Source: Thainema sp.
Lineage (GTDB): Bacteria > Cyanobacteriota > Cyanobacteriia > Phormidesmidales > Phormidesmidaceae
Length of the DNA: 40,385 nt
NCBI GenBank assembly: GCA_052168235.1
Contig: JBQLZK010000033.1
Coordinates: 36,173 to 76,557 of the forward strand
Direction of reading: 5' to 3'
Below are positions 16,427 through 38,889 of the stretch, piece by piece; the stretch's first letter is position 1; the number at the start of each line of letters is the position of its first letter. The notes beneath the pieces are model-generated. The model searched no databases, was not told the origin of the DNA, and worked only from the letters and a program-made list of their open reading frames with translations. Position numbers and translations under genes: made by a program.

Positions 16427-19099
16427 ATGCTCAGCTTGACGGTGATTAGCACAAACCAAGGCGAGACCTACTACACGGCTGAGAACTACTACTCCAGCGA
16501 GGAGCACCAGGTGCACTCGGCTTGGTTCGGCAAAGGAGCCTGTCAGTTTGGGCTGACAGGGCCAGTGCAAGGCAACGACTTTAAGCAGTTGCTCCACGGT
16601 TATAGTCCTCAGGGTCACCAGACATTGTCGGGTCGAACCATCAGTCCTAACCGACATCGAGCTGGACTTGACCTCACCTTTAGTGCGCCGAAGAGCATCA
16701 GCTTAGCGGCTTTAGTCGGCGGACAGGAGCAATTAGAGCAGGCGCACCGCACTGCCGTTGATCGCACGCTCGCTGTGATTGAAGAGCGCTATGCTCAGAC
16801 GCGGGTACGCACACTAGAAGGCCGACATGCGATCGCAACTGGCAGTCTGATCGTGGCTCAGTTTCACCATGATACGTCGCGAGAGAAAGATCCGCAGTTA
16901 CATACGCACTGCGTTGTCATCAATGCCACTCAGCTAGAGAACGGTCGCTGGCAGTCGTTGCACAATGATGTGCTGTTCAAGCAGCAGAAACTACTGGGGA
17001 TGATTTACCAAAATGAGTTGGCGGTAGAAGTGCAACGCCTGGGCTATGCCATTGAGCGCAGAGACAATGGGCAGTTTGAGCTACAGGGGTATGCTCTGGA
17101 CGCTCTACAAACGTTTTCTAAACGGCGGGAGCAGATTCTGGCTGCGGTCGGAGATGCGGCAACCTCTCAGGAGAGGGAATTGGCAACGCTCATGACACGG
17201 GCACCGAAGGGACAGGAAATCCCACGGGAGGAACTGCGAGCCTATTGGCAAGAGCAAGCTCGCGTTCTGCAGCTCAATCATCCTCAGCCTCAATCGCCAA
17301 TCTGGCAAAGTCAGCCACAACGGGCTGTTCAGGCCGGTGTCAACCATTGTGCTGAGCGGGAAGCCGTCTTCCATCGGGAACAAGTGGAGCAGTTTGTCTT
17401 GGAGAATCATCTGGGCCAGCAGTTTTTTGATGATGTGCAGCAGTTTTTTGATGCTGATCCGGAGGTGATTCGGACAGCTGATCAGCGGTTGACAACTCAA
17501 GCCGCTGTTTTGCGAGAGTTAGACACGATCCGCCTCATGTTGGATGGGCGGGGGCAGGTAAGCGCGATCGCAGATTCCGCATTCGTTCAGGCATACCTAG
17601 AGAATCAAGATTTGACAGCGGGACAATATGAGGGGATTCGATTAGCCGCGACAACCTGCGATCGCACAATCGCCTGGCAAGGTGTCGCTGGGGCAGGCAA
17701 GAGCTATGCGCTCAATCGGTTTCGGCAGATGGCTGAGGCTCAAGGGTATACCGTGCGGGGATTGGCTCCCAGTGCGGAGGCAGCAAAAGCATTAAGTGAT
17801 TCGGCTCAGCTTCAGCAGACGGAGACGGTAGCTGCATGGCTGTGTCAGCAATCTAAATCGCTATCACCTCGTCAGCCTGAAGTCTGGGTGGTGGATGAAG
17901 CGGGGCTATTGAGTGCTAAGGATGCGCTGGCGCTACTGACGAAGGCTCAGGAGCAGCAGGCTCGCGTGATGTTAGTGGGCGATACTCGCCAGTTGTCGGC
18001 GGTGGAAGCTGGGAATCCGTTCAAGAGTTTGCAGCAGGCGGGAATGGCAACGGCCTATTTATCCCAGTCTCTGCGACAGACCCATCAGCAGATCAAGGCA
18101 GGTGTTGAGCTGATTGCAGACGGCAAAATTGCAGAGGGAATGGGTCAACTGCAGCCGTATATTCAGCGGGTCAGCAGTGAGGCCGAACGAGCAACTGCGA
18201 TCGCACAGGACTATCTGGCTCTCACGCCAGATGAACGGCAGCAGACCTTACTACTCGCTGGGACGAATCGAGAGCGGTTGGCGATTACTCAGCTGATTCG
18301 AGAGGGATTGAAGACAGCTGGGCAGCTGGGTCAAGGGGTGACCGTTCAGCGGCTCAAGGCTAGAGATTTGACGGAAGTACAGGCGGGGTATGCCCATCAG
18401 TTTCAACGGGGGAACGTGCTGATTCCTCACGTCAGCTACCAGCGGTCAGGGCTGGAGCGAGGACAACGCTATGAGGTCATTGCGGTTGATCCGCAGCAGA
18501 ATATGCTGATGCTTTGTGCTGACAGCGGATCAGCGATACAGATTGACCCGGCTCAGATCAGGAAAAAATCAGCGTATGTTGTGGAAGCGATTCAACTGGC
18601 AGTAGGCGATCGGCTGAAGTGGACGAAGAATGAAGCGGCAGTGGGCCGACGCAATGGGCAGGAGTTTGAGGTGTGTGGCATTGACGATGGGCAAATTTTG
18701 ATCCGCTATGGCAACGGCAAAACGGACAGCTTGAACAGCTTGGAGCTGGCGCATCTTGATTACGCATGGGTCAGTACGACCTATGGGGCGCAGGGCAAGT
18801 CGGCGGATCGGGTGATTGGAGCGTTGGATCGGTACGTGGGGCGGGAGAGTTTTTATGTGACGGTGAGTCGGGTGAAGCAGGATTTGAAGCTGTATGCGTC
18901 GGAGGATTTGAGTCAGCTGATTGAGCGGGCTGAGCAGTCTCGGGCAAAGGAAAATCCGGCTGAGGTGATACGGCTCAACTCACTGCAAGAGCGAGATCCT
19001 AGACGGGTTAAAGGGTTGGAGCAATCGCCGAGAGTCGAGGTGTGGGAACGCGCAACTCGCCAGAGAGCAGAGCGTGTGAAGGCTGAGCGAGAGCGGTAG
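16427..19099 (+). CDS. mobF: MOBF (TrwC/TraI-like) relaxase-helicase
   Basis: YYTAENYY tyrosines, DLTFSAPKSISL, HDTSREKDPQLHTH (HUH); helicase QGVAGAGKS, VVDEAGLL, GDTRQLSAV, TTYGAQGKS; AGGAGG RBS. Confidence 0.95.
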   Translation: MLSLTVISTNQGETYYTAENYYSSEEHQVHSAWFGKGACQFGLTGPVQGNDFKQLLHGYSPQGHQTLSGRTISPNRHRAGLDLTFSAPKSISLAALVGGQEQLEQAHRTAVDRTLAVIEERYAQTRVRTLEGRHAIATGSLIVAQFHHDTSREKDPQLHTHCVVINATQLENGRWQSLHNDVLFKQQKLLGMIYQNELAVEVQRLGYAIERRDNGQFELQGYALDALQTFSKRREQILAAVGDAATSQERELATLMTRAPKGQEIPREELRAYWQEQARVLQLNHPQPQSPIWQSQPQRAVQAGVNHCAEREAVFHREQVEQFVLENHLGQQFFDDVQQFFDADPEVIRTADQRLTTQAAVLRELDTIRLMLDGRGQVSAIADSAFVQAYLENQDLTAGQYEGIRLAATTCDRTIAWQGVAGAGKSYALNRFRQMAEAQGYTVRGLAPSAEAAKALSDSAQLQQTETVAAWLCQQSKSLSPRQPEVWVVDEAGLLSAKDALALLTKAQEQQARVMLVGDTRQLSAVEAGNPFKSLQQAGMATAYLSQSLRQTHQQIKAGVELIADGKIAEGMGQLQPYIQRVSSEAERATAIAQDYLALTPDERQQTLLLAGTNRERLAITQLIREGLKTAGQLGQGVTVQRLKARDLTEVQAGYAHQFQRGNVLIPHVSYQRSGLERGQRYEVIAVDPQQNMLMLCADSGSAIQIDPAQIRKKSAYVVEAIQLAVGDRLKWTKNEAAVGRRNGQEFEVCGIDDGQILIRYGNGKTDSLNSLELAHLDYAWVSTTYGAQGKSADRVIGALDRYVGRESFYVTVSRVKQDLKLYASEDLSQLIERAEQSRAKENPAEVIRLNSLQERDPRRVKGLEQSPRVEVWERATRQRAERVKAERER

Positions 19100-19139: not shown

Positions 19140-20306
19140 CTATTTCTGCCGTCGTCCGGTGCCGCCTTCTCGGAGGGCGCGGCGGGCGAGTTTGGAGTAG
19201 GTTTTGACGGTTTCGTAAGAGAGATCCATGTCGGCGGCGATGGTTGGCAGCGATTCACCGAGTTCGCGGCGGGCCAGGACGGTGGCTTGCTTTTCGGCGA
19301 CGGTTTCGGCACGGGTGCCGCCCGTGCGTTTGCGTTGGGACATGAGAATGTCGGTGAGTTCAGCGATCCGCTGGGCCAGGAGCGTTTCAACGGGGTTTTG
19401 GGTAGGCGTGTCGGCTTCATCGAGCCAGCCGAGTTGCGTTTGACCGAGGCCAAAGGTGGTTTTGTGGCCGGTGCCGAAGTAGGGCGCGAGTTGACCGAGC
19501 CGATAGAAGAGATCGACATATCCGCGATCGCTCTTGGCTTTATTGGCCAGACCAAATTGAATGGCTCCCACAAAACCGGTGACGGAGCCGCGCTTTCCGG
19601 CAGCGACTTTCTGGGACTGGAGCTGGTGCCGTTGGATAATTACGTGTTCGTCGATCCAGTCGAGAAAGGCATCTTGTTCAATGGACTGACCGGAAAAGTC
19701 GTTCCAGCGGCGCAGGTAGCTGTGGAAGATATTGCGGGGCCAGGGGAGGGGGAGGTGATGCCCTTTGCGGCGGAAACTGGTGGGCGAGAGGAAGCTCAGG
19801 GTGACGGTCGGTGAAAGGGGGACTTCTCGGGCGATGAATTCTTTGTAGGTTGCGGCAGGGTAGGCGATATCGACCTGCTGGATCGTCAGGGGGGCGTCGT
19901 AGAGTTCGACGCGCTCGGGCAGGACTTTGAGCCAGTCGGCTAAGCCCTGGACGGTGTCTTGGGAGAGGGCGGTGATTGTCCAGTGATACGGTTGCTCGGG
20001 GCGCAGGCGAAACTGGCGGCCTTCGGTGTCGAGTTGGCCGTCTAAGCGGGAGAGGGTAAAGGCTTTTTCGGATTCGCCGTCGTGGAGGTAGGCGGATAGA
20101 GCGGGATTGATGGCCTGGATTTGCTGAAGGAACCAGGCGTGGAGGCCAGTAGCATAGTTGGCCTTGAGGGGATCGGCAGCGACGGGTTGAAGCGTGAAGC
20201 GGAGGCCGATGAGTTCGGTGGCTTTGGGCCACTTGGGGACGGAAACCTGTGGAGCGGATGTTTTTTTGCGGCTGGTGGTGCGGGGCACGATGAGATCGCA
20301 GGGCAA
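19140..20306 (-). CDS. cas6: CRISPR endoribonuclease Cas6 with C-terminal HTH extension
   Basis: LHAWFL, FTLSRL, FLSPTSFRRKG, G-rich loop GTGHKTTFGLG; adjacent to array 1. Start may be GTG about 20288. Confidence 0.92.
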   Translation of the reverse strand: MPCDLIVPRTTSRKKTSAPQVSVPKWPKATELIGLRFTLQPVAADPLKANYATGLHAWFLQQIQAINPALSAYLHDGESEKAFTLSRLDGQLDTEGRQFRLRPEQPYHWTITALSQDTVQGLADWLKVLPERVELYDAPLTIQQVDIAYPAATYKEFIAREVPLSPTVTLSFLSPTSFRRKGHHLPLPWPRNIFHSYLRRWNDFSGQSIEQDAFLDWIDEHVIIQRHQLQSQKVAAGKRGSVTGFVGAIQFGLANKAKSDRGYVDLFYRLGQLAPYFGTGHKTTFGLGQTQLGWLDEADTPTQNPVETLLAQRIAELTDILMSQRKRTGGTRAETVAEKQATVLARRELGESLPTIAADMDLSYETVKTYSKLARRALREGGTGRRQK

Positions 20307-20393: not shown

Positions 20394-21722
20394 TATTCCG
20401 TCCCCTTGCGGGGTAATGGGTTGGAAAGTCTTGGATTGTTGCTGTCACCGGTTGTAATTGCTGCAGAATCAGTTTTCGTCCCCTTGCGGGGTAATGGGAT
20501 TTAAACCCTATTTCCGATGTTCTTTGGGAAGAACTCGAAAAGTTTCCGTCCCCTTGCGGGGTAATGGGATTTAAACCAATACGCCGTTAGTGACAAATGA
20601 GTGTCACGACGTTTCCGTCCCCTTGCGGGGTAATGGGATTTAAACCACTAAGAAATGACCACACGCACATCCCTTATCCGGGTTTCCGTCCCCTTGCGGG
20701 GTAATGGGATTTAAACTTTGGTCCCGTACTGAACTCGAGTGTCGCAGCCGTAAGGTTTCCGTCCCCTTGCGGGGTAATGGGATTTAAACACTTGGATTGG
20801 TCTCAGGCTAACTCATTGACCGTAGGGAGCGTTTCCGTCCCCTTGCGGGGTAATGGGATTTAAACTTCTGGTTTCTTGAGAAATTACAGCCAAACCAAGA
20901 TCGTTTCCGTCCCCTTGCGGGGTAATGGGATTTAAACTTTACAATTAGCATCTATTCCAGCTGATGCTCAAACGTTTCCGTCCCCTTGCGGGGTAATGGG
21001 ATTTAAACAATTGATGGATTATCTTTTTTAAAAGGCATCAAAAAGTTTCCGTCCCCTTGCGGGGTAATGGGATTTAAACCTCCTAATCAGCTCCTTTTAG
21101 TTGATGAGCAAACGTTTCCGTCCCCTTGCGGGGTAATGGGATTTAAACTCTATGGAACTAATGCAGACTTGCAAAAGTTTGCGGAGGTTTCCGTCCCCTT
21201 GCGGGGTAATGAGATTTAAACTATTACTCGACGGAATGCTATCGGATTATTAGCCGGTTTTGTTTCCGTCCCCTTGCGGGGTAATGGGATTTAAACATTT
21301 TACGATATCTATGACCAATACGGAAACCTCGTAGTGTTTCCGTCCCCTTGCGGGGTAATGGGATTTAAACACCTTTCAAAAGGTAGTACTGTTGAGGCAG
21401 AATGGACGTTTCCGTCCCCTTGCGGGGTAATGGGATTTAAACAAGCTATTTTCAAAGCGTGCCCGGTCTGCCGCAAGTTTCCGTCCCCTTGCGGGGTAAT
21501 GGGATTTAAACGAGACTGTAATTTTCACTGATGAAACAATCGCGAAGTTTCCGTCCCCTTGCGGGGTAATGGGATTTAAACCGATATTATGCGTCTTAAG
21601 CGCACGTGGGTATCGTTTCCGTCCCCTTGCGGGGTAATGGGATTTAAACGAATATGACGATAACGGTTGCGGACAAGTAGACGGACAGTTTCCGTCCCCT
21701 TGCGGGGTAATGGGATTTAAAC
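20394..21722 (-). CRISPR. CRISPR array 1: 19 repeats / 18 spacers; repeat (+) GTTTCCGTCCCCTTGCGGGGTAATGGGATTTAAAC
   Basis: 35-bp repeats counted by hand, spacers 33-43 nt; degenerate repeat at the left end and leader on the right indicate minus-strand transcription. Confidence 0.98.
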
Positions 21723-21968
21723 CCCCTCGATCTGGAGCCCTTACGGTACAAGGCTTTCAATACCCCAAATCTGAGGGGGTCAAAATCAAAGCTCAATAAT
21801 TGAGAATAGTGTCAATAAACCCCACTCAAAACAAGGCTCAAACCCTTGCACGGAAGGCAATCTGAGGGGGTCAACGAAGTTATGCGGTTTTCCAGGTTCG
21901 CCCGACCCCCTCAGATTAACAACCCCATTTCAGTCGGTCAAGCGCTCAATGCCAAAGTTTACAATCCC
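21723..21968 (-). promoter_or_regulatory. Leader of array 1 with sigma70-type promoter (TTGACC-17-TAATCT, 21941-21913) and boxA-like motif
   Basis: Near-identical to 26804-27048 and to the deleted copy at 38643-38785; the promoter spacing is kept in leaders 1 and 2. Confidence 0.8.
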
Positions 21969-22061
21969 TTGAGCAGTTTATGCCATTTTTCGTGGATAAA
22001 GACGCAGGGAGGCGGGGGAGCGTGGGGCAAGGGAGCGTCGGGGCAGGGGAGCAGAGGAGCT

Positions 22062-24261: not shown

Positions 24262-24663
24262 CTAACGCGACAGAAGCCGCTGCATTTCTTGGACAAATCC
24301 CGATGTGTCTTGAATCAGTTGTTCGACCTGCTCAGTTTCAAAGGTGTACAAGATTAGATAGTCTGCTGCCTGACGATTCTCAAACGCGCGGTCAAAGACT
24401 TTTCCCCATTGGGGAGCTAACTGTTTAGTTTTGATCAGGTCTCTATGAATGGCACTCCTCAAGCCTGCATGTTTAACAAATTGTTTGCCTTGTTGCAGCA
24501 TGACCGCACTCGCCGCGTAAAAACAGGCATAGTAGGCTCGATTCACGGCAAAGTCTAGCCGATTTGCTTGAAATTCTGACTGAGCAGAATCCAATGCCTG
24601 AGCTGCTTTATGCAGCAGTTGTTCAATAACGACTTCTGGTTCAGGTTGTGATGTTGAATCCAT
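24262..24663 (-). CDS. HEPN-domain protein (toxin partner of MNT)
   Basis: AVNRAYYACFYAA, HAGL, FENRQAADY; its start overlaps the MNT stop. Confidence 0.85.
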   Translation of the reverse strand: MDSTSQPEPEVVIEQLLHKAAQALDSAQSEFQANRLDFAVNRAYYACFYAASAVMLQQGKQFVKHAGLRSAIHRDLIKTKQLAPQWGKVFDRAFENRQAADYLILYTFETEQVEQLIQDTSGFVQEMQRLLSR

Positions 24664-25007
24664 TAGGCAGCTACACCTTCTCGCTCAATTTCTTGGTGAA
24701 TTGGCAGCAGTGTATAGTTGCCTGACATCCATTCCGCATATGAAACGATGAGTGTGCTAAGAACAACATCGTAGGCTAATTCAAGGTCAAAGAGTGCATC
24801 AGTGATGGCGTCGCGTTCTTGCCAGGTGAGGGAACGTTGGGTGAGCACTAATAAGTCGATGTCAGATTCTTGGGTGGCTTTGCCAGTGACTTTTGAACCG
24901 TAGAGAATGACCTGCTGGACAGGAAAGTTTTGATAGAGCAACTGAACCGCTGCTTCGATGGCCAGTCGGTCGTTTTGCGTTAGGGGGAGATCTGCGATCG
25001 CACTCAT
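24663..25007 (-). CDS. Minimal nucleotidyltransferase (MNT) antitoxin
   Basis: ILYGSKVTGKATQESDIDLLV (GS-x10-DxD). Confidence 0.88.
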   Translation of the reverse strand: MSAIADLPLTQNDRLAIEAAVQLLYQNFPVQQVILYGSKVTGKATQESDIDLLVLTQRSLTWQERDAITDALFDLELAYDVVLSTLIVSYAEWMSGNYTLLPIHQEIEREGVAA

Positions 25008-25171: not shown

Positions 25172-26803
25172 GTTTCCGTCCCCTCGCGGGGTAATGGAAT
25201 TGAAACTTTTTAATTATGCCCAGTTTCTGGGAGCGTGCAAAACGCGTTTCCGTCCCCTCGCGGGGTAATGGAATTGAAACTCTGCCCACTTCGGGAGTTC
25301 GGTGTTACGGCATAAACACCGTTTTCGTCCCCTCGCGGGGTAATGGAATTGAAACCTTTATCGCAGGTTCAGCAACCCTATGACGCAGGCAGGTTTCCGT
25401 CCCCTCGCGGGGTAATGGAATTGAAACGATGCATATTTCCTCTGGTTTGAGGAGACGAAAGTCTCGTTTCCGTCCCCTCGCGGGGTAATGGAATTGAAAC
25501 CTCTAGGACAGCTGACAGGGTACTATATGTACTCAGGTTTCCGTCCCCTCGCGGGGTAATGGAATTGAAACGCTATACAAGAAATCAGAGATGGTGGTTA
25601 TCAGATTGGTGTTTCCGTCCCCTCGCGGGGTAATGGAATTGAAACTTTCAATTTTGATCGCTTTGGTTATCATTTTACCGTTTCCGTCCCCTCGCGGGGT
25701 AATGGAATTGAAACAATCGATGATAAAGAGCCGTCCATGAGTGCCAAAGTTTCCGTCCCCTCGCGGGGTAATGGAATTGAAACAATCGATAGAGAGTTTT
25801 CTCCTGATCTAGATCTGGAGCGTTTCCGTCCCCTCGCGGGGTAATGGAATTGAAACCGGAAGAAGAGTTGTCCAAAGATTCTCATATAATCTATGGTTTC
25901 CGTCCCCTCGCGGGGTAATGGAATTGAAACCGTTGCTCTTTGATCGAGATATTACTGTTGAACAAAAGGTTTCCGTCCCCTCGCGGGGTAATGGAATTGA
26001 AACCATCGCAACGTAGACATGACAAGCTGGACGCCCCATGTTTCCGTCCCCTCGCGGGGTAATGGAATTGAAACACTTCAGACTTTAGGGTATGTATCTA
26101 AAGTTGAAATGGTTTCCGTCCCCTCGCGGGGTAATGGAATTGAAACTAACCAAGATCACTACCGTAAGTCAAATGGCGAGCTGTTTCCGTCCCCTCGCGG
26201 GGTAATGGAATTGAAACACTTCAGACTTTAGGGTATGTATCTAAAGTTGAAATGGTTTCCGTCCCCTCGCGGGGTAATGGAATTGAAACTAACCAAGATC
26301 ACTACCGTAAGTCAAATGGCGAGCTGTTTCCGTCCCCTCGCGGGGTAATGGAATTGAAACCGTAGACATCTACACCACGGATCTAGGTACAGTTGTAGTT
26401 TCCGTCCCCTCGCGGGGTAATGGAATTGAAACAATCGATAGAGAGTTTTCTCCTGATCTAGATCTGGAGCGTTTCCGTCCCCTCGCGGGGTAATGGAATT
26501 GGAAACAAATATTGGGTATTTGTACTATCACCCAAGCGCTTTTGGGTTTCCGTCCCCTCGCGGGGTAATGGAATTGGAAACAAGTCAACCAATTGACGGA
26601 GCAATGATAAGGACGGGAGTGTTTCCGTCCCCTCGCGGGGTAATGGAATTGGAAACCGAGGTATCTGGGCCAGCCTTCAACGGCATGTACCCGTTTCCGT
26701 CCCCTCGCGGGGTAATGGAATTGGAAACCCTTACTCGAAGAACTGTACATGGCTTTCGCTCATACGAGTTTCCGTCCCCTCGCGGGGTAATGGAATTGGA
26801 AAC
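25172..26803 (-). CRISPR. CRISPR array 2: 23 repeats / 22 spacers; repeat (+) GTTTCCGTCCCCTCGCGGGGTAATGGAATTGAAAC, five leader-proximal copies are a 36-bp variant
   Basis: Counted by hand; leader on the right. Confidence 0.98.
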
Positions 26804-27048
26804 CCCCTCGATCTGGAGCCCTTACGGTGTAAGGCTTTCAATACCCCAAATCTGAGGGGGTCGAAATCAAAGCTCGAAATTGAGAATGGTGTCAATAAAC
26901 CCCACTCAAAACAAGGCTCAAACCCTTGCACGGAAGGCAATCTGAGGGGGTCAACGAAGTTATGCGGTTTTCCAGGTTCGCTCGACCCCCTCAGATTAGC
27001 AACCCCAACTGAGTGGGTCAAGCGCTCAATGCTAAAGTTTACAATCCT
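26804..27048 (-). promoter_or_regulatory. Leader of array 2 with promoter TTGACC-17-TAATCT (27021-26993) and boxA-like motif
   Basis: Near-identical to leader 1; its distal end overlaps the last codons of the 27032-27823 gene. Confidence 0.8.
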
Positions 27049-27823
27049 TTCGGCGAATGTAATTCAAAATCTCCCGCACCACTCCACTCTTCCCCCGACA
27101 GGTCAACAACACCACATCCCCCGATAGCGTGCCCAGCTTCTTCAACTGCATAATGCTATCCGTCTGCTGGTGCTTCATATAGCCCGTAATCAACACAATC
27201 AGGTCGCAATCCTGCAACTTTGCCTTAATATTGCTGCGCCCAATGCTGTGCTTACAAAACGGCGGCAACTCCACCCAGCGCGTCAGGCCATACCGCTGGC
27301 GCAAATCTGAAATTGCCCCTCGCCGAGTTGCATCATGGCCCCCGACCAACGCCAGCTTCATCCCCGACAAATCAATCCCGTCCAACTCTGGTCGGCCTTG
27401 ATCGACGGGGATTGTTGTCCGGACATCCAGCCGTGAAGCCGCCCCGACCGACTGAGCAACCCGCGCCTCCTCCGCTACAGGAGCTGACTGGATAGCCCGT
27501 ACAGTTGTCAACAGCTCAAACAGTTCCTCAATCAGGTCTTCCAGTTCCCAAATTTCAAGCTGGAGATCATCCCGCTCCGCTTGGATCTGGTCATAGCGGG
27601 TTTGCCAAGCTTGATTGTCCACCCCCAATTGATCCCGCACCGCCAGCAGTTCGCGATTGAGCACGTTGTACTCTGCTTGCAGAGCCGCCAACTGACGCAT
27701 CAGTCGCTGTTTATCCCGCTGATCTGCACCAGAAATGCCCCTGACTAATCGCCTAATAGATTGACGGATGGCCCGCCGGATAGCGATTAGAATTTGCCCA
27801 GTTCCTTGCCAATCCTGCTTCAT
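27032..27823 (-). CDS. Coiled-coil protein with C-terminal DUF2325-like Rossmannoid domain
   Basis: KLALVGGH...DCDLIVLITGYMKH...RGKSGVVREI; ATGA overlap with the upstream gene. Confidence 0.7.
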   Translation of the reverse strand: MKQDWQGTGQILIAIRRAIRQSIRRLVRGISGADQRDKQRLMRQLAALQAEYNVLNRELLAVRDQLGVDNQAWQTRYDQIQAERDDLQLEIWELEDLIEELFELLTTVRAIQSAPVAEEARVAQSVGAASRLDVRTTIPVDQGRPELDGIDLSGMKLALVGGHDATRRGAISDLRQRYGLTRWVELPPFCKHSIGRSNIKAKLQDCDLIVLITGYMKHQQTDSIMQLKKLGTLSGDVVLLTCRGKSGVVREILNYIRRKDCKL

Positions 27824-28218
27824 CGCAACGCTCCTTCCCCTGGCTTAACCCACACCGCCGCATCTTCAATCAGTCGATCCAACGCGGCAAAAATGATCCG
27901 ATAGCGACCCACTAACGCTTGCCCCACTTCGGGTTTCACATAGCCAAACTCCACGGCAAACTGCACCCAGGTTTGCATCTCCGCCGCTTCCGCTTGAGCA
28001 TCATTGAGCTTCGCCACAAATGCCTTGCCGTAGCGGCGCTTGCCCCAGGCTTCGGCAATGCTGGCGCAAACCGAGCGCGATGCCGTGAGTGCCTGACGCG
28101 TGAGCAGCACTCGCTCTTCAGCCGGAAATTGACGCGAAAGCTGAAAAATCTGCGTCGAACACTTAAACGCCAGTTGATACACCTGAAGTTCTTGATAACT
28201 CTGAATAAAGTCCTGCAT
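27820..28218 (-). CDS. Four-helix-bundle protein (23S rRNA IVP / Avd-like), copy 2
   Basis: SYQELQVYQLAF...FPAEE...LTRQ...ASRSVCASIAEAWGKRRY...FVAKL..A.AEAAEMQTW; AGGAG RBS before ATG 28218. Confidence 0.85.
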   Translation of the reverse strand: MQDFIQSYQELQVYQLAFKCSTQIFQLSRQFPAEERVLLTRQALTASRSVCASIAEAWGKRRYGKAFVAKLNDAQAEAAEMQTWVQFAVEFGYVKPEVGQALVGRYRIIFAALDRLIEDAAVWVKPGEGALR

Positions 28219-28262
28219 CCTGTTCTCCTGCGAACGATAAGGTGAAAGGGATATTGTCCTTG

Positions 28263-28398
28263 CATAGGGGCAAATGGCCATTGCCCTTACTTGAGACATC
28301 AACTGCTTGCTCTCATCCCCCAACCCCTTCTCCCACAGGAGAAGAGGAGCCGGATCGGAAGTCCCTCGCCCTGCGGGAGAGGGATTTAGGGTGAGGGC
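28263..28398. repeat. Cyanobacterial REP-like / small dispersed palindromic repeats
   Basis: Hairpin TAGGGGCAA...TTGCCCTTAC and the CCCCTTCTCCC...GGGAGAGGGATTTAGGGTGAGGG motif between the two four-helix-bundle genes. Confidence 0.45.
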
Positions 28399-28408
28399 AA
28401 TTTCCTGT

Positions 28409-28834
28409 TTACGCCGTCGCAGGCAACGTATCCTCGGGATTCTCCGCCCAAGTGTCTCCCTGTCCCGCCGCCGTTGCCATTAGCTGATCGAGCGCCATTC
28501 CAATCGCACGATAGCGCTCATGCAGGGTCTGTCCCGCATCGGCATCCAGATCGCCCACTGCGATCGCGGTTTCCAGCCAGGTTTGCATTTCGGTTGTAGC
28601 CAGATGAGCCGCGCTCAGCTTGCCGAGCAATGCCACTCGGTTGCGCCGTTGCCCCCAGGCCGCCGCAATCTCAGCCCGTACCGTTCGCGATGTCGCCAAC
28701 AGCTTTTGGGTGAGGGCCATATCAGCCATATCTGGAAACTGTTCAGCCAGGTTATACAGGTCAACCGAGCATTGGAACGCGAGCTGGTAAACCTGGAGGT
28801 CTTGAAAACTGCGAGTCGAAGTCTGCATCATCAT
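28409..28834 (-). CDS. Four-helix-bundle protein (23S rRNA IVP / Avd-like), copy 1, more diverged
   Basis: SFQDLQVYQLAF...LTQKLLATSRTVRAEIAAAWGQRR...TEMQTW; paralogous to 27820-28218; GGAG RBS. Confidence 0.82.
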   Translation of the reverse strand: MMMQTSTRSFQDLQVYQLAFQCSVDLYNLAEQFPDMADMALTQKLLATSRTVRAEIAAAWGQRRNRVALLGKLSAAHLATTEMQTWLETAIAVGDLDADAGQTLHERYRAIGMALDQLMATAAGQGDTWAENPEDTLPATA

Positions 28835-28863
28835 GTCTCCGTTCAAATAGATTCAACAATCGG

Positions 28864-29142
28864 TTAGACAATAAACGTCGCGTCATCCACTTCCCGTGGC
28901 GGTTGTAGCCCCATCACCAGCACCTTTTTGCGGTAGCGAGGCGACAGCGGATAAAAGCGCACTTGGTCTTCATCGGGTCGGATATATCGGTCGAGCTTGC
29001 GCTGCAGCATCGCGTATTGATCGGGGTTCAGCACACACTCAAACACCGACTTTTGTACCCGCATGCCATAGCCTTCTAGGATGTGGGCCACTTTATTGCG
29101 GCGACGATCCAGCACGATGTCGTAGCACACCAGGTAAAACAT
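28864..29142 (-). CDS. cas2: CRISPR-associated Cas2
   Basis: MFYLVCYDI..DRRRNKV...LEGYGMRVQKSVFEC; ATG 29142 overlaps the RT-cas1 stop (TGATG). Confidence 0.95.
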   Translation of the reverse strand: MFYLVCYDIVLDRRRNKVAHILEGYGMRVQKSVFECVLNPDQYAMLQRKLDRYIRPDEDQVRFYPLSPRYRKKVLVMGLQPPREVDDATFIV

Positions 29143-31106
29143 CAGCCCTCCCACTTCATCGGGCGATAAACCGGCTGCTCTCCCGTCAGGCAGGCCACAT
29201 ATTCCCAAACCTGTAATTCCAGACAGCGGCGATAGCTGACCTTATAGCCCGTATGGGGATGGGTAACGGACTGCTGTAGTTTCTCTTCCCAATGCTTGAG
29301 AAAGCGCTTCATCGCATCGGGATACAAGTACACGCCGCCCCGCTCATCCGGTGGTGTAAAGTCTTCTTCGCTGAAAATATTGGAATTGATCAGATAGGCC
29401 ACCAGCGAATCCACGGCAATGGCGCGAAACTCTTCCACCAGGTCGCACACCAGCGAGGGACGATTGGTCTTTGGCAGGTGCAGATTGCCAAAGTGGGTAT
29501 GAAGGCCGACCCCCTCCACCATCGCGTGCACATTTTGCGACAGCAGCGTATAGCCCAAGCTCAACAGGCTGTTGACCGGATCAGTAGGCGGACGGCGAGT
29601 GCGCTTTTCAAACTCAAACTTGCCCTTTAGCAGCGACGCATAGGCTTGAAAATATAGATTGGCTCCCGTGCCCTCATAGCCCAGCATCGATTCCAGCGAT
29701 TCTACGGTGGTCACGGTTTCCATCAGCTCGGCTAGCGTTTCAATGGCCTGTACCGCCTTTTCAGTTTTCCGCCGCCGGTTGAGCCGCAGCAGCAAAATCC
29801 GCGAGTTATGCAATTTCCCGACAATGATGCTGATCGCTTGCGTGCGGACAAACTCCGGATCTTGCGACTTCTGCACCTGTAGGATTAGGTAGTCTAAACG
29901 AGCCTGTCCTGTCGTTTGCAGTCGGCCAAAGTAGCGCCCCTTGTCGGATAAGTACAGCACTGGAATCCGTCGCTGCAAGGCTAATCGCACTGCTCCATGC
30001 GACACATTGCAGCAGCCAAACAGGACGACGTGACTAATCCGACTGGCAGGCACTGAGCAACGCAGCTCATCCCGGTAAAACACCTGAAACTGCCGATGCC
30101 GCACCCGCAAATATGCGCCTTGTTCCGTTACATATAACGTGGTCATACCGTCCCTCCAGTATTCATCCGATGACGTGGCCAACACGCGCTTTGGGGTTTT
30201 GACAATGCTGCACACCTTCGGCGGCCCCCAAATCGGCTTTGGATTCTGCCTTTTGCCTTCTGCCTTCTGCCTTCTCGGCGCTTCCACTTCCCCCTTCTCA
30301 AACTGATGTCCCAGAAAAACAAAGGCTTCTCCCGGCGGAATAATCTGAGTCTTGTCAGGATTAAGTGCTAGACCCAGGTCTTCAATCCAGTCCTGCATCA
30401 GCGATAAGCTGCGGCTGGCTTCCAAGTAGCTTTGGCACACTACGACACAGTCATCGCCGTACCGCACCAAGTCGATATCGGCCTCTAGACAATGCCGATC
30501 AAAATCGTTCAAATACAAATTGGCTAACGCTCCCGACAGGATGCTGCCCTGCAACACCCCTTGATTGGGTCGATAAAGCTGCCCATTGAGCACAATGCCG
30601 GACTTGAGCTGCTGCTCAATCCACATCAGCCAGGCTGGCGTTAAGCCAAGCTGTTCCAGTTGATGCAGCAGCAGTGGCCACGATAAGCTGTCAAAAAACT
30701 GCTGAATATCAGCCTTAATCACCCAAGCTGGCTGGTGCTGATACCGTTCCATCACCCGATCAACAGCGGTGTAAATCGAGAGACCCGGACGATAGGCAAA
30801 GGCCGCATCACTAAACTCCCGTTCTAGATGGGGGTAGATGCTTTGTAGTAAGTACCGCTGCACAATGCGATCGCGCACGGTTGGAATGCCAATCAGACGC
30901 TTTCCACCACTCTTTTTAGCCAGATAAAAGCCTTTGGCGGGATTGGCCACATAGCGCTCTTGCTGCATCTGCCGATAGAGCTGGCGGATTTGCTCTTGAG
31001 CAATGCCCGTAAACATCTCCACCGTGATGCCATCCACACCCGCAGCTTGGCTGCCCCGCTGGACAAGATGCCAGGCCGTCGCCAGTTGTTCTGTGTGTAA
31101 TTTCAT
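29142..31106 (-). CDS. cas1: Reverse transcriptase-Cas1 fusion
   Basis: RT: AAGVDG, RLIGIPTVRDRIVQ, ADIQQFFD, GVLQGSILSGALANLYL, VRYGDD. Cas1: TTLYVTEQG, GYEGTGA, RRPPTDPVNSLLSLGYTLL, DLVEEFR. ATG 31106 has an AGGGAG RBS; the ORF track extends to 31349. Confidence 0.96.
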   Translation of the reverse strand: MKLHTEQLATAWHLVQRGSQAAGVDGITVEMFTGIAQEQIRQLYRQMQQERYVANPAKGFYLAKKSGGKRLIGIPTVRDRIVQRYLLQSIYPHLEREFSDAAFAYRPGLSIYTAVDRVMERYQHQPAWVIKADIQQFFDSLSWPLLLHQLEQLGLTPAWLMWIEQQLKSGIVLNGQLYRPNQGVLQGSILSGALANLYLNDFDRHCLEADIDLVRYGDDCVVVCQSYLEASRSLSLMQDWIEDLGLALNPDKTQIIPPGEAFVFLGHQFEKGEVEAPRRQKAEGKRQNPKPIWGPPKVCSIVKTPKRVLATSSDEYWRDGMTTLYVTEQGAYLRVRHRQFQVFYRDELRCSVPASRISHVVLFGCCNVSHGAVRLALQRRIPVLYLSDKGRYFGRLQTTGQARLDYLILQVQKSQDPEFVRTQAISIIVGKLHNSRILLLRLNRRRKTEKAVQAIETLAELMETVTTVESLESMLGYEGTGANLYFQAYASLLKGKFEFEKRTRRPPTDPVNSLLSLGYTLLSQNVHAMVEGVGLHTHFGNLHLPKTNRPSLVCDLVEEFRAIAVDSLVAYLINSNIFSEEDFTPPDERGGVYLYPDAMKRFLKHWEEKLQQSVTHPHTGYKVSYRRCLELQVWEYVACLTGEQPVYRPMKWEG

Positions 31107-31491
31107 CGCGTTTCTCCCTTGCAAATTAGGGATAGAAAGAAGAACTCGGTGAACGTTCTCCAAGTCCTTCTTGGGTTGACGCGACCATCCTCGCAATCCG
31201 TTATTTGAGTTCAACCCCGAGTTGTACCTGACTTCAGGACTGAGAAGAAAAAGGCAGAAGGCAGAATGGTGTAAATAGTTAAGCGTTGCTGTGAGATCCC
31301 CCGCTGTCGCCGCCCCCTTAGCAAAGGGGCTATCCACAGATCGATCCAAAGTTCAGTCTGATATGCCTGATAAGTTGATATCCTTTGAAGGAATAATGAG
31401 GACAAATGCGATCGCAGATTGCAGATTATGCGATTAGATCCAACTGCGATCGCAACTCCCCCTGTTCTTTTTCATCCTTCTGCCTTTCCCT

Positions 31492-33891: not shown

Positions 33892-36754
33892 GTTTTCGTC
33901 CCCTTGCGGGGTGATGGGTTGGAAAGAGTTGAGGATGAGCGTATTTCGGTAGCACAAGCTATCCGTGTTTCCGTCCCCTTGCGGGGTGATGGGTTGGAAA
34001 GAGGAACAGGAGCAAGACCAAGACCAGGCGATCGAAGATAGCGGGTTTCCGTCCCCTTGCGGGGTGATGGGTTGGAAAGATGAGCAGATGCGACTCCCTA
34101 ATAGTTACGGCGTTGACCAATGCTGTTTCCGTCCCCTTGCGGGGTGATGGGTTGGAAAGCATAGCTACACTTAGCGCCGCTGTTGTCTTATATGGATATG
34201 TTTCCGTCCCCTTGCGGGGTGATGGGTTGGAAAGGATGTTGACACCAATGCCGATGCGGACGCCGAGTCCAACTCGGAAGTTCGTGACTGTTTCCGTCCC
34301 CTTGCGGGGTGATGGGTTGGAAAGTACACAATGGAAGGGACTATCAAACTCTACAAAGAGGTTTCCGTCCCCTTGCGGGGTGATGGGTTGGAAAGTAATT
34401 CTGATAGTAGAAGCAGGCACTGCCAAAATTCAACAAGTTTCCGTCCCCTTGCGGGGTGATGGGTTGGAAAGAGTTAATCCAGAAGCAGCACACTGCTGCT
34501 TCGATTAAAACAGTTGAAGTTTCCGTCCCCTTGCGGGGTGATGGGTTGGAAAGCCTATGGTCGGTTTGCCGTACACTTTGCCGAAGCCTAAAGTTTCCGT
34601 CCCCTTGCGGGGTGATGGGTTGGAAAGAACACAAAACTTCCGTAGTAGCTGTAATTAATAGTCCAGTTTCCGTCCCCTTGCGGGGTGATGGGTTGGAAAG
34701 ACTAACTGCTCTTACTGTATAATTGGAGAATATATTGTGGTTTCCGTCCCCTTGCGGGGTGATGGGTTGGAAAGAGTAGAAATGAGTACTTTAATACTCG
34801 CACTTTTTTATCTCCCAGTTTTCGTCCCCTTGCGGGGTGATGGGTTGGAAAGTTGATGCCATTTCCGGAAACGGTGAGGTATATCTCGGCTTGTTTCCGT
34901 CCCCTTGCGGGGTGATGGGTTGGAAAGTAGTGCAGCTGCAGTTGTAGTTGCACTAATCGGTACATTAGTGTTTCCGTCCCCTTGCGGGGTGATGGGTTGG
35001 AAAGTTCGCATTGGTTACCAATGCGGGACAGGGTCTGGAAGGGGTTTCCGTCCCCTTGTGGGGTGATGGGTTGGAAAGCGGTTGAATTCGATTTCGGTGG
35101 AACAACCGAAGTGATTACAGTAGAGTTTCCGTCCCCTTGCGGGGTGATGGGTTGGAAAGACTCTTGGGTACTTCGTTAAACTCATGATGTCTGATCCAAG
35201 GTTTCCGTCCCCTTGCGGGGTGATGGGTTGGAAAGCTCAACCTCTTCCCTCAGTCTGAAATCGTAACTCCTCAGGTTTCCGTCCCCTTGCGGGGTGATGG
35301 GTTGGAAAGAGCAGGTTCTTCCTCAGCAGACGCCTCAGCAGCAGGTTCTTGGTTTCCGTCCCCTTGCGGGGTGATGGGTTGGAAAGTATACCGTGAGGGT
35401 ACACCCATTAAAGTCCAGGTGATTGAAGGTTTCCGTCCCCTTGCGGGGTGATGGGTTGGAAAGGTTACAGCAGCTGAGAACTACCTTGCTGATTTCGATT
35501 GGTACAGTTTCCGTCCCCTTGCGGGGTGATGGGTTGGAAAGACTCGTTCTCGGTATCGGCGGCTTGGGCACAGCGCTCACTGTTTCCGTCCCCTTGCGGG
35601 GTGATGGGTTGGAAAGTCCAATATTTCACGCCTACTAGATGCCCATGAGCGGCAACAGTTTCCGTCCCCTTGCGGGGTGATGGGTTGGAAAGACTGGAAT
35701 ATGAGTAAGTCCGATATTGTTTCAAATATCTGGTTTCCGTCCCCTTGCGGGGTGATGGGTTGGAAAGAGGAGTAATCGCCTCTCCCGCTGCTATCGCAGC
35801 TCCTGGAGTTTCCGTCCCCTTGCGGGGTGATGGGTTGGAAAGATTGTCGGCATGCTACGCCCATTCCCGACTGCAAGTATTACTGTTTCCGTCCCCTTGC
35901 GGGGTGATGGGTTGGAAAGATTGTCGGCATGCTAAAGTTATTAATCTTTAGTGGTTCCGAGTTTCCGTCCCCTTGCGGGGTGATGGGTTGGAAAGGATGG
36001 GCACAAGTACATGAAAACTTATGAAGCACGTAGTTTCCGTCCCCTTGCGGGGTGATGGGTTGGAAAGAGTCATTGCGCGATCGCATCATCACCGTACTGA
36101 AGCTGAAGTTTCCGTCCCCTTGCGGGGTGATGGGTTGGAAAGTCTATTTGAGATGCAAGAATCTGTACTAAATATCTTCATGCTCAAGTTTCCGTCCCCT
36201 TGCGGGGTGATGGGTTGGAAAGATCCCGGATCTAGAAATAGGGGATCAGGCTGTAAGCTTTGCTGTTTCCGTCCCCTTGCGGGGTGATGGGTTGGAAAGA
36301 CTAACACTTGGTGCGGCACTACTCGTTTCTGGCGCAGTAGTTTCCGTCCCCTTGCGGGGTGATGGGTTGGAAAGAACGTCAATCAGTTGCGGGCAATCCT
36401 GAATTTGCGGTAATCAACGTTTCCGTCCCCTTGCGGGGTGATGGGTTGGAAAGCCTGAACAGGGCTACGAGGCGGTTGTTCCGTGTATCAACGGTTTCCG
36501 TCCCCTTGCGGGGTGATGGGTTGGAAAGATTTTGCCTAATGTTGGCATAGGGGGGAATTATCATGGTTTCCGTCCCCTTGCGGGGTGATGGGTTGGAAAG
36601 AGGTAATCATCTTGTTGATGTCAGATAGATAAATTTTAAGTTTTCGTCCCCTTGCGGGGTGATGGGTTGGAAAGCATCAACCTTCCCCGTCCAGTAAAAG
36701 CAATTATTCTGGGAGGCGGGTTTCCGTCCCCTTGCGGGGTGATGGGTTGGAAAG
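33892..36754 (-). CRISPR. CRISPR array 3: 38 repeats / 37 spacers; repeat (+) GTTTCCGTCCCCTTGCGGGGTGATGGGTTGGAAAG
   Basis: Counted by hand; spacers 36-55 nt, mostly 37-47; leader on the right next to the second cas2. Confidence 0.98.
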
Positions 36755-36990
36755 GGTTCGCTGAGAAACCCTTATAGGGAAAAGATTTCAGACTGCAAAT
36801 CGACGCATTAGCAATTTAGCGCGAATTTGCCTGCAAAATCTACCCTATTTAGAAAGCTTTAGGGTGTCGAAAACCTTACGGAACAAGGCATCGACGCATT
36901 AGAACGAAGTTATGCGGTTTTCAAGGTTCCAAGCTAATGCGTCGATAGTAGCGCAAGACACCAAACTTAGACTGTTTTTCTCATCACACT
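36755..36990 (-). promoter_or_regulatory. Leader of array 3 (second leader family) with boxA GAACCTTGAAAA
   Basis: Different sequence from leaders 1/2/4 but the same motif geometry and a shared AACGAAGTTATGCGGTTTTC.AGGTTC block. Confidence 0.75.
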
Positions 36991-37266
36991 TTAGATTATG
37001 TAAACATCTGGTGGTGGTTCCGGTGGATTGCTGCCAATCGTCAATGTCCGAGGCATGGCATCGGCTGTAATCCAATAAAACCGCACATTGTCCTCACTAT
37101 CTTTCACTCGACGCTGCACGTTGCGATGAAGCTGTTTCATATCATCCAGCGACAAAAAGCACTCAAACGCACTTTTCTGCACTCGCCGACCATATCCTTC
37201 CAGAAACGTTGCCAGCTTATTGCGGCGTTTGTCGTCTGGAATATCGTAGATTACCAGCACCAGCAT
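36991..37266 (-). CDS. cas2: CRISPR-associated Cas2 (second copy)
   Basis: MLVLVIYDIPDDKRRNKL...LEGYGRRVQKSAFEC. Confidence 0.95.
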   Translation of the reverse strand: MLVLVIYDIPDDKRRNKLATFLEGYGRRVQKSAFECFLSLDDMKQLHRNVQRRVKDSEDNVRFYWITADAMPRTLTIGSNPPEPPPDVYII

Positions 37267-37781
37267 CAGGTTGCCCTCAAGAACGGCTCATAGAGAGTGC
37301 CATTTAACAAACTGCGTTTATAGCGCCTGACCTGAAGTTCAATTGCACGACGATAAGATACCTTACCCTGTATGTCTGGATGAGAGATTTCATCTCCCAA
37401 ACGGGCTTCGACTTTCTGGATAAACAACCGTCGAGCCGATTCCGATAGGTAGATGCCGCCTTCCTGTGTTGGCCATGTAAAATCCGTCGGTACAAAGATG
37501 CGGCGGTTAATTAACTTCAGCACCAAGCTGTCCACTACTGGCGATCGAAACTCCTCCACCAAATCAAACGCCAAAAACGTCTGCTTTTTCTCTGACCCAT
37601 GCAGATTGCCCAAATAGGGATTCAACCCCTCCGCCAAAATCAGACTCAGCACATTATTGAACAACAGCGTATAGCCAAAGCTCAGCAATGAATTGACTGG
37701 ATCTTGCGGTGGACGCCGCGTTCGTTCCGTAAACGTAAACGCTGGATTGACAATCAGTAGCCCCAACGCCTTAAAGTAGCG
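37266..37781 (-). pseudogene. cas1: 5'-truncated cas1 (C-terminal about 170 aa only)
   Basis: RYFKALG...RRPPQDPVNSLLSFGYTLL...GNLH...DLVEEFR; similarity stops about 24 bp from array 4, before the GYEG catalytic Glu motif; the frame is closed within the first spacer. Confidence 0.88.
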
Positions 37782-37804
37782 ATGCGTTCTAGCGAGATCA
37801 TTGG

Positions 37805-38642
37805 GTTTCCGTCCCCTCGCGGGGTAATGGAATTGAAACGCTCCTCAGGGTGCTCCTCAGGGTGCTCCTCAAGTTTCCGTCCCCTCGCGGGGTAATGGAA
37901 TTGAAACATTTCAGCAAATAAGCTTATTTAGCCTCTACAATTGTTGTTTCCGTCCCCTCGCGGGGTAATGGAATTGAAACGGTGACATCTATGACATTGC
38001 CGCTCCTGAAGGGGCTGAAGTTTCCGTCCCCTCGCGGGGTAATGGAATTGAAACTATTTTGGTATTAGCGTGACAAGTCTAGAGTCGGGTCAGTTTCCGT
38101 CCCCTCGCGGGGTAATGGAATTGAAACTTTCATCGCCTTAACCGCCCTAACTGTAATCCTTGCTTGTTTCCGTCCCCTCGCGGGGTAATGGAATTGAAAC
38201 GCGAATTGGCAGAATCATACTGCCAGCATTACAGTATTGGCGTGTTTCCGTCCCCTCGCGGGGTAATGGAATTGAAACCTGCAGGCATTAGCATGGCTGC
38301 TGCTCCAGCTCCAGGTTTCCGTCCCCTCGCGGGGTAATGGAATTGAAACAACCCACAAGACCAACGGTCGTATTTTCTACCAAAGTTTCCGTCCCCTCGC
38401 GGGGTAATGGAATTGAAACTGTTCTCGGTGTTCTTAGTGCTATTCTCAGCTTTCTGCTGGTTTCCGTCCCCTCGCGGGGTAATGGAATTGAAACAGTTAA
38501 TCGTTTTCGTTGGAACAATGCCGACCCTAATCCAGGTTTCCGTCCCCTCGCGGGGTAATGGAATTGAAACTAATAAATAGAATTTAAACCTTTTCTGTTT
38601 CGATATTGTTTCCGTCCCCTCGCGGGGTAATGGAATTGAAAC
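37805..38642 (-). CRISPR. CRISPR array 4: 12 repeats / 11 spacers; same 35-bp repeat as array 2
   Basis: Counted by hand; leader on the right. Confidence 0.98.
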
Positions 38643-38785
38643 CCCCTCGATCTGGAGCCTTTACTGCGTAAGGCTTTCAATACCCCAAATCTGAGGGGGT
38701 CAGAATCAAAAGCGAGTAATTGAGAATAGTGTCAACAAACCCCATTTGAGTGGGTCAAGCGCTCAACGCTAAAGTTTACAATCCT
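38643..38785 (-). promoter_or_regulatory. Internally deleted leader of array 4
   Basis: Aligns to both ends of leader 1 but lacks about 103 bp between two AACCCCA copies. Confidence 0.8.
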
Positions 38786-38889
38786 TTTAGCAATTTTACC
38801 GTTCTGCCTTCTGCCTTTAATTAAGCGATCTTAAGCAATCTCTCTTCCGCCACAGTGAACAACGCTAAAATTCTGATGCCTCATTTCTG

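Follow-up and report, generated by a model that had tools for sequence, protein, structure and literature searches.

In a contig of the cyanobacterium Thainema sp. (GenBank assembly GCA_052168235.1, contig JBQLZK010000033.1, positions 36,173 to 76,557), we noted an operon for spacer acquisition by CRISPR (short palindromic repeats that are clustered and regularly interspaced) that carries extra genes. A gene fusing a reverse transcriptase (RT) to Cas1 is followed by cas2, by two genes for small four-helix-bundle (4HB) proteins of the family PF05635, here called HB1 and HB2, and by a gene for a basic, DUF2325-like protein that ends at the leader of a CRISPR array. The window, in what follows, is the whole stretch of 40,385 nucleotides (nt) that was analysed. 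Our main finding is that the 4HB cassette is a domesticated accessory cassette. The fuller reading, in which it is a lineage-specific accessory cassette of the cyanobacterial RT-Cas1-Cas2 spacer-acquisition module and acts at the leader, has in our judgement an even chance of being right.

The evidence that carries this finding comes from counts of related loci. A scan of one genome per species gave 80 loci with relatives of the RT-Cas1 protein, all of them cyanobacterial. In the RT-Cas1 tree, which included the window and a second copy from the same genome (on C9), the clade of the window (27 rows) is set apart from a Nostocales-type clade (41 rows) with a support of 100. Because the clades are defined by the RT-Cas1 tree, this grouping is independent of the presence of 4HB genes. 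Genes were counted if they lay on the same strand within 300 nt after cas2, using a local 4HB profile that recovered all seven Pfam matches of the genome. The clade of the window comprises 31 loci, six of which end too early to be judged. In the other loci a 4HB gene follows cas2 without exception (25 of 25), two of these copies being damaged (L003 and L027). No 4HB gene was found after cas2 in 30 Nostocales-type RT-Cas1 loci, in the plain cas1-cas2 loci of 40 genomes, in 13 RT-Cas1 loci of an even phylum sample or in 12 Cas4-Cas1 fusion loci, which gives 0 of 95 for the pooled comparison sets. The Thainema genome has just seven PF05635 genes in 7.54 Mb, and since three of them stand behind an RT-cas1-cas2 pair the arrangement is not a product of chance. 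The original prediction expected enrichment beside RT-cas1 relative to plain cas1; this is seen for one RT-Cas1 clade (25 of 25 against 0 of 40) but does not extend to RT-Cas1 generally. The tie of the 4HB genes to RT-Cas1-Cas2 is thus specific and stable, and it is confined to a single RT-Cas1 clade.

The RT-Cas1 alignment contains no insertion specific to the clade of the window that might serve as a docking site, and the one indel that separates the clades, 14 columns long, is an insertion found in the Nostocales type. Several of the Nostocales-type loci (L030-L078) pass from RT-Cas1 directly into a short CRISPR array, and many loci of that clade have a separate plain cas1-cas2 at a distance of 1-6 kb.

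The history of the linked genes was followed in a tree built from 77 4HB domains. Here the 34 copies behind cas2 all fall into a single clade, with a Shimodaira-Hasegawa-like approximate likelihood ratio test (SH-aLRT) support of 100 and a branch length of 0.72, and the opposite-strand 4HBs of L006, L011 and L029 group with the dispersed copies of the family. In its main sub-groups this tree matches that of RT-Cas1. HB1 is a duplicate that sits on a long branch (1.03) within the HB2 group formed by the nearest relatives of the window, and a second, independent duplication is seen in L014, L022 and L029. Ratios of nonsynonymous to synonymous substitution (dN/dS) from six close loci are 0.067 for RT-Cas1, 0.069 for Cas2, 0.087 for HB2, 0.19 for HB1 and 0.205 for the DUF2325-like protein, values which are rough because dS is near saturation (1.3-1.9). 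Judged by these ratios, the linked 4HBs and their partner are under purifying selection. The differences in presence and absence that would mark a mobile cassette were not found among the 25 informative loci, where the 4HB always stands behind cas2, and no inverted repeat runs or octamer boundaries flank HB1 or HB2 in the window. Together the trees indicate that the linked 4HB lineage broadly co-diversified with RT-Cas1 after a single capture from a promiscuous family.

Both 4HB proteins resemble the 23S rRNA intervening-sequence proteins in passing the family cut-offs, which are 33.8 bits for PF05635 (HB1, 2.5e-13 and 50.6 bits; HB2, 8.2e-23 and 81.1 bits) and 24 bits for TIGR02436 (HB1, 1.2e-10 and 41.5 bits; HB2, 3.6e-20 and 72.2 bits). 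The predicted model of HB2 has four long helices and a predicted local distance difference test (pLDDT) score of 89. It is best matched by 2GSC, on which it superposes with a root-mean-square deviation of 1.3 Å over 106-108 columns (E 4.6e-5; template-modelling (TM) score 0.75-0.88), followed by 2RLD (E 1.8e-4). The next matches are Avd chains of diversity-generating retroelements (DGRs), with TMq values of 0.62-0.74 (8UB7_B, 0.74; 4DWL_D, 0.62) at 15-19% sequence identity. These matches bear out the earlier assignment of the bundle to the fold of Avd, in the sense that HB2 is predicted to have the fold shared by the PF05635/Avd group.

Sequence and charge set the linked lineage apart from the rest of the family. 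The dispersed PF05635 relatives share a near-invariant stretch, SLTDQIRRSSRSVCANLAEAWRKRRY, from which the RT-Cas1-linked lineage has diverged. The family motif is given as GxxRxxxSxxxNxxE in the accessible part of PMC3936711. The corresponding segment of HB2 (RSVCASIAEAW) keeps the R, S and E and has S in place of N, and that of HB1 (RTVRAEIAAAW, within which IAAAWG is read on into the next residue) has lost the conserved Glu, as is the case across the HB1 group. The linked lineage has a median isoelectric point (pI) of 5.15 and a charge of -4.1, compared with a median pI of 8.5 for the dispersed copies. In the window, the pI is 4.8 for HB1 (aligned domain) and 8.6 for HB2.

Avd is a basic, nucleic-acid-binding pentamer that binds RNA and its RT. 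It could accordingly be proposed that the 4HBs are Avd-like cofactors, possibly assembled as an HB1/HB2 hetero-pentamer, that bind the RT domain and RNA and are needed for the acquisition of RNA-derived spacers. As in DGRs with Avd (4DWL; 8UB7 and related), a gene for a protein with a four-helix fold stands beside an RT gene, Avd chains follow directly on 2GSC and 2RLD among the structural matches, and both of those entries contain five chains. The strict link of the 4HB to one RT-Cas1 clade also speaks for such a role, as does the loss of Glu from HB1, of a kind often met in degenerate subunits of hetero-oligomers. In addition, no GIIM, thumb or maturase family is among the Pfam matches of RT-Cas1 at E <= 0.01, so that a thumb supplied in trans is conceivable. 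PF05635 is, in the portion of PMC10053308 available, the commonest Pfam family near DGR RTs. Nevertheless, the sister RT-Cas1 clade does without a 4HB after cas2 (0 of 30) and without any compensating domain. The linked lineage is mostly acidic whereas Avd is basic, and the bAvd model (PF22296) is not reached, with 18.8 bits for HB2, where the cut-off is 40, and no match for HB1 at E <= 0.01. The constant translational coupling of the 4HB is to the partner gene rather than to RT-cas1. Finally, the RT, which is fused to Cas1, belongs with the group II intron RTs (1.8e-72) and not with the DGR type; template/variable repeat pairs were not searched for. In our view a role as Avd-type cofactors is therefore rather unlikely. 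The original prediction of Avd-like accessory subunits retains the fold and the tie to RT-Cas1, but the bAvd scores and the acidity of the linked lineage do not favour the Avd likeness beyond that. Its suggestion of a hetero-oligomer is compatible with the paralogy of the two proteins and with the loss of the conserved Glu in one of them, which would fit a complex containing a degenerate subunit.

The partner gene at the leader side is less easily placed. The DUF2325-like protein matches PF10087 at 1.4e-4 (22.4 bits), which is below the cut-off of 33.6, and its aligned homologues match the same model at E <= 0.01 in 18 of 18 cases (best 4e-6). Atlas leads were all below 0.9 (DpdD-like, 0.82; DUF2325 clusters, 0.76-0.78). 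Its predicted model (pLDDT 84.7) consists of a helix (residues 6-113), a disordered stretch (120-155) and a four-stranded α/β domain (156-262). Foldseek gave no PDB match at E <= 0.001 for this model, VIA-align gave generic flavodoxin/Rossmann-like α/β matches only (best Z 9.3) and a PDB profile search of the protein matched the coiled coil only. On the strength of the profile matches, the protein is best described as a distant DUF2325 relative. The family is a small one, numbering 224 representatives (E <= 0.001) in a set of 1.84 billion. In other cyanobacteria (L082-L085) the DUF2325-like domain forms the C-terminus of TPR-like helical-repeat proteins of about 740 amino acids (aa), and no cas genes were seen at two of these loci (L083 and L085).

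The DUF2325-like gene is present in 17 of the 31 clade loci. In the basal branch of the clade (L004, L005, L008, L027 and L079) and on C9, its position is taken by a zinc-ribbon ParE-like gene, and the ParE-like partners have a pI above 10.5. The C9 partner combines a zinc-binding DUF7682 domain with a ParE_like domain (PF24732, 1.2e-25). It belongs to a second operon, at 58.8-62.0 kb of C9 (L091), in which RT-Cas1 (658 aa), Cas2 and a 4HB are followed by the zinc-ribbon ParE_like gene and an array. Overlap of the start of the partner with the 4HB stop is seen in the window as well as in L004, L008 and L079, and an array begins 236-356 nt past the stop of the DUF2325-like gene wherever the contig continues. 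Zinc-ribbon ParE_like proteins (129-165 aa), a widespread and very basic family, are found in 125 of 401 cyanobacterial genomes, mostly one per genome among the strongest matches listed. None of the 30 loci of this family that were examined (L194-L223) has a cas gene, a 4HB or an array within 1.5 kb. PF05635 was considered as a general partner of ParE_like genes and rejected, since none of these 30 loci holds a 4HB.

An acidic protein encoded ahead of a basic one raises the question of an addiction pair, in which the 4HB would neutralise a harmful basic partner and so stabilise a plasmid-borne CRISPR island. The gene order would suit a toxin-antitoxin-like pair, in that a small acidic gene precedes a basic one and the stop of the former overlaps the start of the latter, and the partner in the basal branch has a ParE_like toxin domain. 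The window looks plasmid-like, with a TrwC relaxase, and two related loci (L016 and L036) are titled as plasmids; the survey of Altae-Tran et al. (2023) also notes, in its accessible part, many toxin-antitoxin modules beside cas genes. These points are offset by the solitary occurrence of the zinc-ribbon ParE-like homologues in all 30 loci and by their spread through 125 of 401 genomes, which suggests that they are not toxins in need of a 4HB antidote. The ParE_like partner is, moreover, limited to the basal branch and C9, and the DUF2325-like domain of the window matches no toxin family. PF05635 proteins are not known antitoxins and no family of that kind was matched in PADLOC or NCBIfam, neither of which gave a usable match for the 4HBs or for their DUF2325-like and ParE-like partners. 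We regard an addiction pair as unlikely.

A further proposal combines selfish origin with an Avd-like function: a domesticated 4HB would have become an obligate RT-Cas1-Cas2 subunit, and an HB1/HB2 hetero-oligomer, docked through the basic leader-side partner, would provide an RT lacking a thumb with an Avd-like thumb or RNA clamp in trans and thereby enable the capture of RNA-derived spacers. This combination we think quite improbable.

The wider family is promiscuous. Two of the seven PF05635 genes of the genome are those of the window and one stands behind the second RT-cas1-cas2 on C9. A fourth lies on the opposite strand within a type I-D cas operon, and iron-uptake, znuABC and flavodiiron operons account for the remaining three. 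The closest homologues of HB2 in other genomes are 43-52% identical to it and occur in 48 of 401 genomes. In 28 of the 29 loci examined, such a homologue is flanked by unrelated genes, among them opp, cheA/cheW, nitrogenase-like, zwf-opcA, ybeY-dgkA and integrase genes, and in the other it adjoins a truncated RT-Cas1. A 4HB within 5 kb was seen in five of the 40 plain cas1 loci, in every case upstream of cas1. Two near-identical Nostoc loci show one site filled and empty: plain cas1 and cas2 are 60 nt apart in L038, whereas L037 has 527 nt there, an insert that holds a 4HB on the opposite strand with inverted A/T-rich repeat runs at its borders. In a study of 2014, Zhang, Doak and Ye counted 18 such 4HB genes in cas loci of several types, according to the part of that paper available. 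Most PF05635 genes are thus single-gene inserts in unrelated operons on either strand, while the lineage described here keeps to one operon, is acidic and is coupled to a partner.

Such scattering, including the copies in iron-uptake, znuABC, flavodiiron and type I-D cas operons, those upstream of plain cas1, the Nostoc site and the published count, is what would be expected if selfish cassettes of the intervening-sequence type had simply landed behind cas2 and persisted there without a CRISPR role, but we consider this very unlikely given the invariable presence of the linked lineage (25 of 25), its single origin (support 100) and broad agreement with the RT-Cas1 tree, a constraint on HB2 matching that on Cas2, stop and start codons that overlap those of neighbours, a shift in charge, two duplications and the lack of flanking repeat boundaries. 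A pure passenger reading suits the family at large and does not fit the RT-Cas1-linked lineage.

In our view, the most consistent interpretation is an accessory cassette that acts at the leader. A PF05635 gene, drawn from a family that scatters as single-gene inserts in unrelated operons, was, on this reading, taken up behind cas2 a single time and has since been passed on along with RT-Cas1. In the window it is duplicated, with HB2 as the conserved copy and HB1 as a degenerate and fast-evolving one. The 4HB is always translationally coupled to a basic partner directly before the CRISPR leader, and that partner has been replaced at the same position, being DUF2325-like here and zinc-ribbon ParE-like in the basal branch. 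The mostly acidic 4HBs would bind the basic partner, and together they may support or control spacer integration, or the use of the array, at the adjacent leader. On this interpretation the 4HBs would not be an Avd-type RNA-binding cofactor of the RT.

Several points weigh against this interpretation. The 25 clade loci are kin and so represent one old, retained evolutionary event, and a stable passenger would likewise be inherited with its host operon. The pairing of acid with base fits the window less well than its relatives because HB2 of the window is mildly basic. As the ParE_like genes are solitary in 30 of 30 loci, partners of that type need no 4HB in general. The near-saturated dS noted above also tempers the argument from selection, and the local 4HB profile might overlook very distant PF05635 members.

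The association itself has been catalogued before. Table S3 of Altae-Tran et al. (2023, Science; PMC10910872) includes '23S rRNA IVP + DUF2325 + RT sometimes' among previously unreported CRISPR-linked modules, and the legend to Fig. 6B of the same paper places '23S rRNA IVP' under new associations of adaptation modules. The window agrees with that module in content, combining genes for a PF05635 protein, a DUF2325-like protein and an RT next to a CRISPR adaptation module and array, and the seed gene of the module (790 nt) is of the same size as the DUF2325-like gene described here. In the accessible parts of the paper the module is a catalogue entry only, with no function proposed. The association is therefore known from those parts and the window is a further member of it. 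The present analysis adds that the tie is confined to one clade, that the 4HB was captured once and later duplicated to give a degenerate copy, that its charge shifted towards acidic and that its partner was swapped. The operon also resembles the cyanobacterial RT-Cas1 clades of Silas et al. (2017; PMC5513706, 'branch 5') and Toro et al. (2017; PMC5541045, clades 3 and 5) in being a fusion restricted to cyanobacteria with arrays nearby, and the available portions of these two accounts do not mention 4HB or DUF2325 genes. Our literature search found nothing joining RT-Cas1 with a four-helix bundle and nothing on these genes as RT-Cas1 accessories; the DUF2325 papers it returned were unrelated and none dealt with the 23S rRNA intervening sequence and CRISPR as they are combined here. 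A 2025 paper on CRISPR classification makes no mention of DUF2325, 23S, four-helix or Avd.

The layout of the operon is given in Table 1. The gene order, the overlapping codons, the short gap after cas2 and the run of the last gene into the leader of array 2 were all as originally predicted, and were confirmed to the base on the minus strand. The A of the cas2 ATG is shared with the TGA stop of RT-cas1, and the stop of HB2 overlaps the start of the DUF2325-like gene (ATGA). The RT-Cas1 protein matches RVT_1 (1.2e-34) and Cas_Cas1 (1.5e-87) in Pfam, and cas1 (1.1e-91) as well as the group II RT model in NCBIfam; Cas2 matches PF09827 (3.6e-26) and TIGR01573 (5.8e-19). With RT and Cas1 in one frame, cas2 adjoining and an array with its leader adjacent, the operon is an RT-Cas1 adaptation module. 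The length of the leader follows from the end of array 2 and the end of the DUF2325-like gene.

Table 1. Features of the RT-cas1 operon and of its surroundings, in positions of the window.
Feature	Position	Strand	Size and remarks
RT-cas1	29142..31106	-	654 aa from ATG at 31106; open frame extends to TTG at 31349
cas2	28864..29142	-	92 aa; start overlaps RT-cas1 stop (TGATG)
Gap between cas2 and HB1			29 nt
4HB-1 (HB1)	28409..28834	-	141 aa
Spacer between HB1 and HB2	28219..28408		190 nt; holds a short dispersed repeat with hairpins
Inverted repeat in spacer	28280-28290 / 28391-28401
Hairpin-rich element in spacer	28308-28400		93 nt
4HB-2 (HB2)	27820..28218 (most likely)	-	132 aa; ATG behind AGGAGA; open frame extends to TTG at 28323
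Coiled-coil/DUF2325-like gene	27032..27823	-	263 aa; pI 9.2; last gene before leader
Leader of CRISPR array 2	26805..27031	-	about 227 nt; conserved block begins within last codons of DUF2325-like gene
CRISPR array 2	25177..26804	-	repeat family D1 and k-mer array detection; same reading direction as operon
TrwC relaxase	16427..19099
cas6 with C-terminal sigma-70 region 4-like match	19140..20306
HEPN	24262..24663
Nucleotidyltransferase	24663..25007
First array within 'array 3'	33897-36754		repeat variant ending GTGATGGGTTGGAAAG
cas2 between the two arrays	36991..37266	-
cas1 fragment (C-terminal)	37266..37766	-
Second array within 'array 3'	37805-38642

The stretch between the two 4HB genes is more than a plain spacer. 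The gap at this position is just 10-60 nt in orthologous loci, and in the window it contains an inverted repeat and a hairpin-rich element of which further copies are spread over many contigs of the genome (53 lines of blastn hits). From its sequence this element looks like a small REP-like (repetitive extragenic palindromic) or MITE-like (miniature inverted-repeat transposable element) repeat. In the promoter and terminator scan the leader had no promoter-like site, and neither the intergenic gaps nor the leader had a terminator-like one. A candidate promoter spotted by eye directly past the stop of the DUF2325-like gene (TTGACC-N17-TAATCT) failed the rule of the promoter scan and was discarded.

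The leaders of the window are related to one another. In an alignment of 21688-21981, 26769-27061 and 38608-38798 (repeats D11, D15 and D16), a common conserved block starts at GGATTGTAAACTTTAG. At array 2 the block that begins with GGATTGTAAACTTTAG takes in the end of the DUF2325-like gene, namely its last codons and its stop. Some 250 nt are nearly the same in leaders 1 and 2, and leader 3 is internally deleted. The region at 33897-38642, referred to as 'array 3', is in fact two arrays, between which lie a C-terminal cas1 fragment and a cas2 gene.

Elsewhere in the window, positions 1-20306 form a plasmid-like island of conflict systems with CHAT, caspase and TIR-CHAT-AAA_35 genes. The same island encodes a 1341-aa AAA_35-WD40 protein with 123-nt repeat units and peptidoglycan enzymes of the phage-lysozyme and VanY types, and ends with the TrwC relaxase and cas6 genes. 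Just past the far end of array 2 is a HEPN and nucleotidyltransferase pair with overlapping stop and start codons.

The choice, reverse transcription and integration of RNA-derived spacers by RT-Cas1 systems are poorly understood. To our knowledge, the RT-Cas1 systems that have been studied experimentally carry no extra genes of this kind. Since the link was already catalogued, the value of the present analysis lies in narrowing what to test rather than in a new discovery. The operon shows cleanly how a small gene family that is otherwise promiscuous came to be captured by a defence operon. With two or three additional genes, all under purifying selection, placed between cas2 and the leader, this clade is a natural place to seek factors that help or control the capture of RNA spacers.

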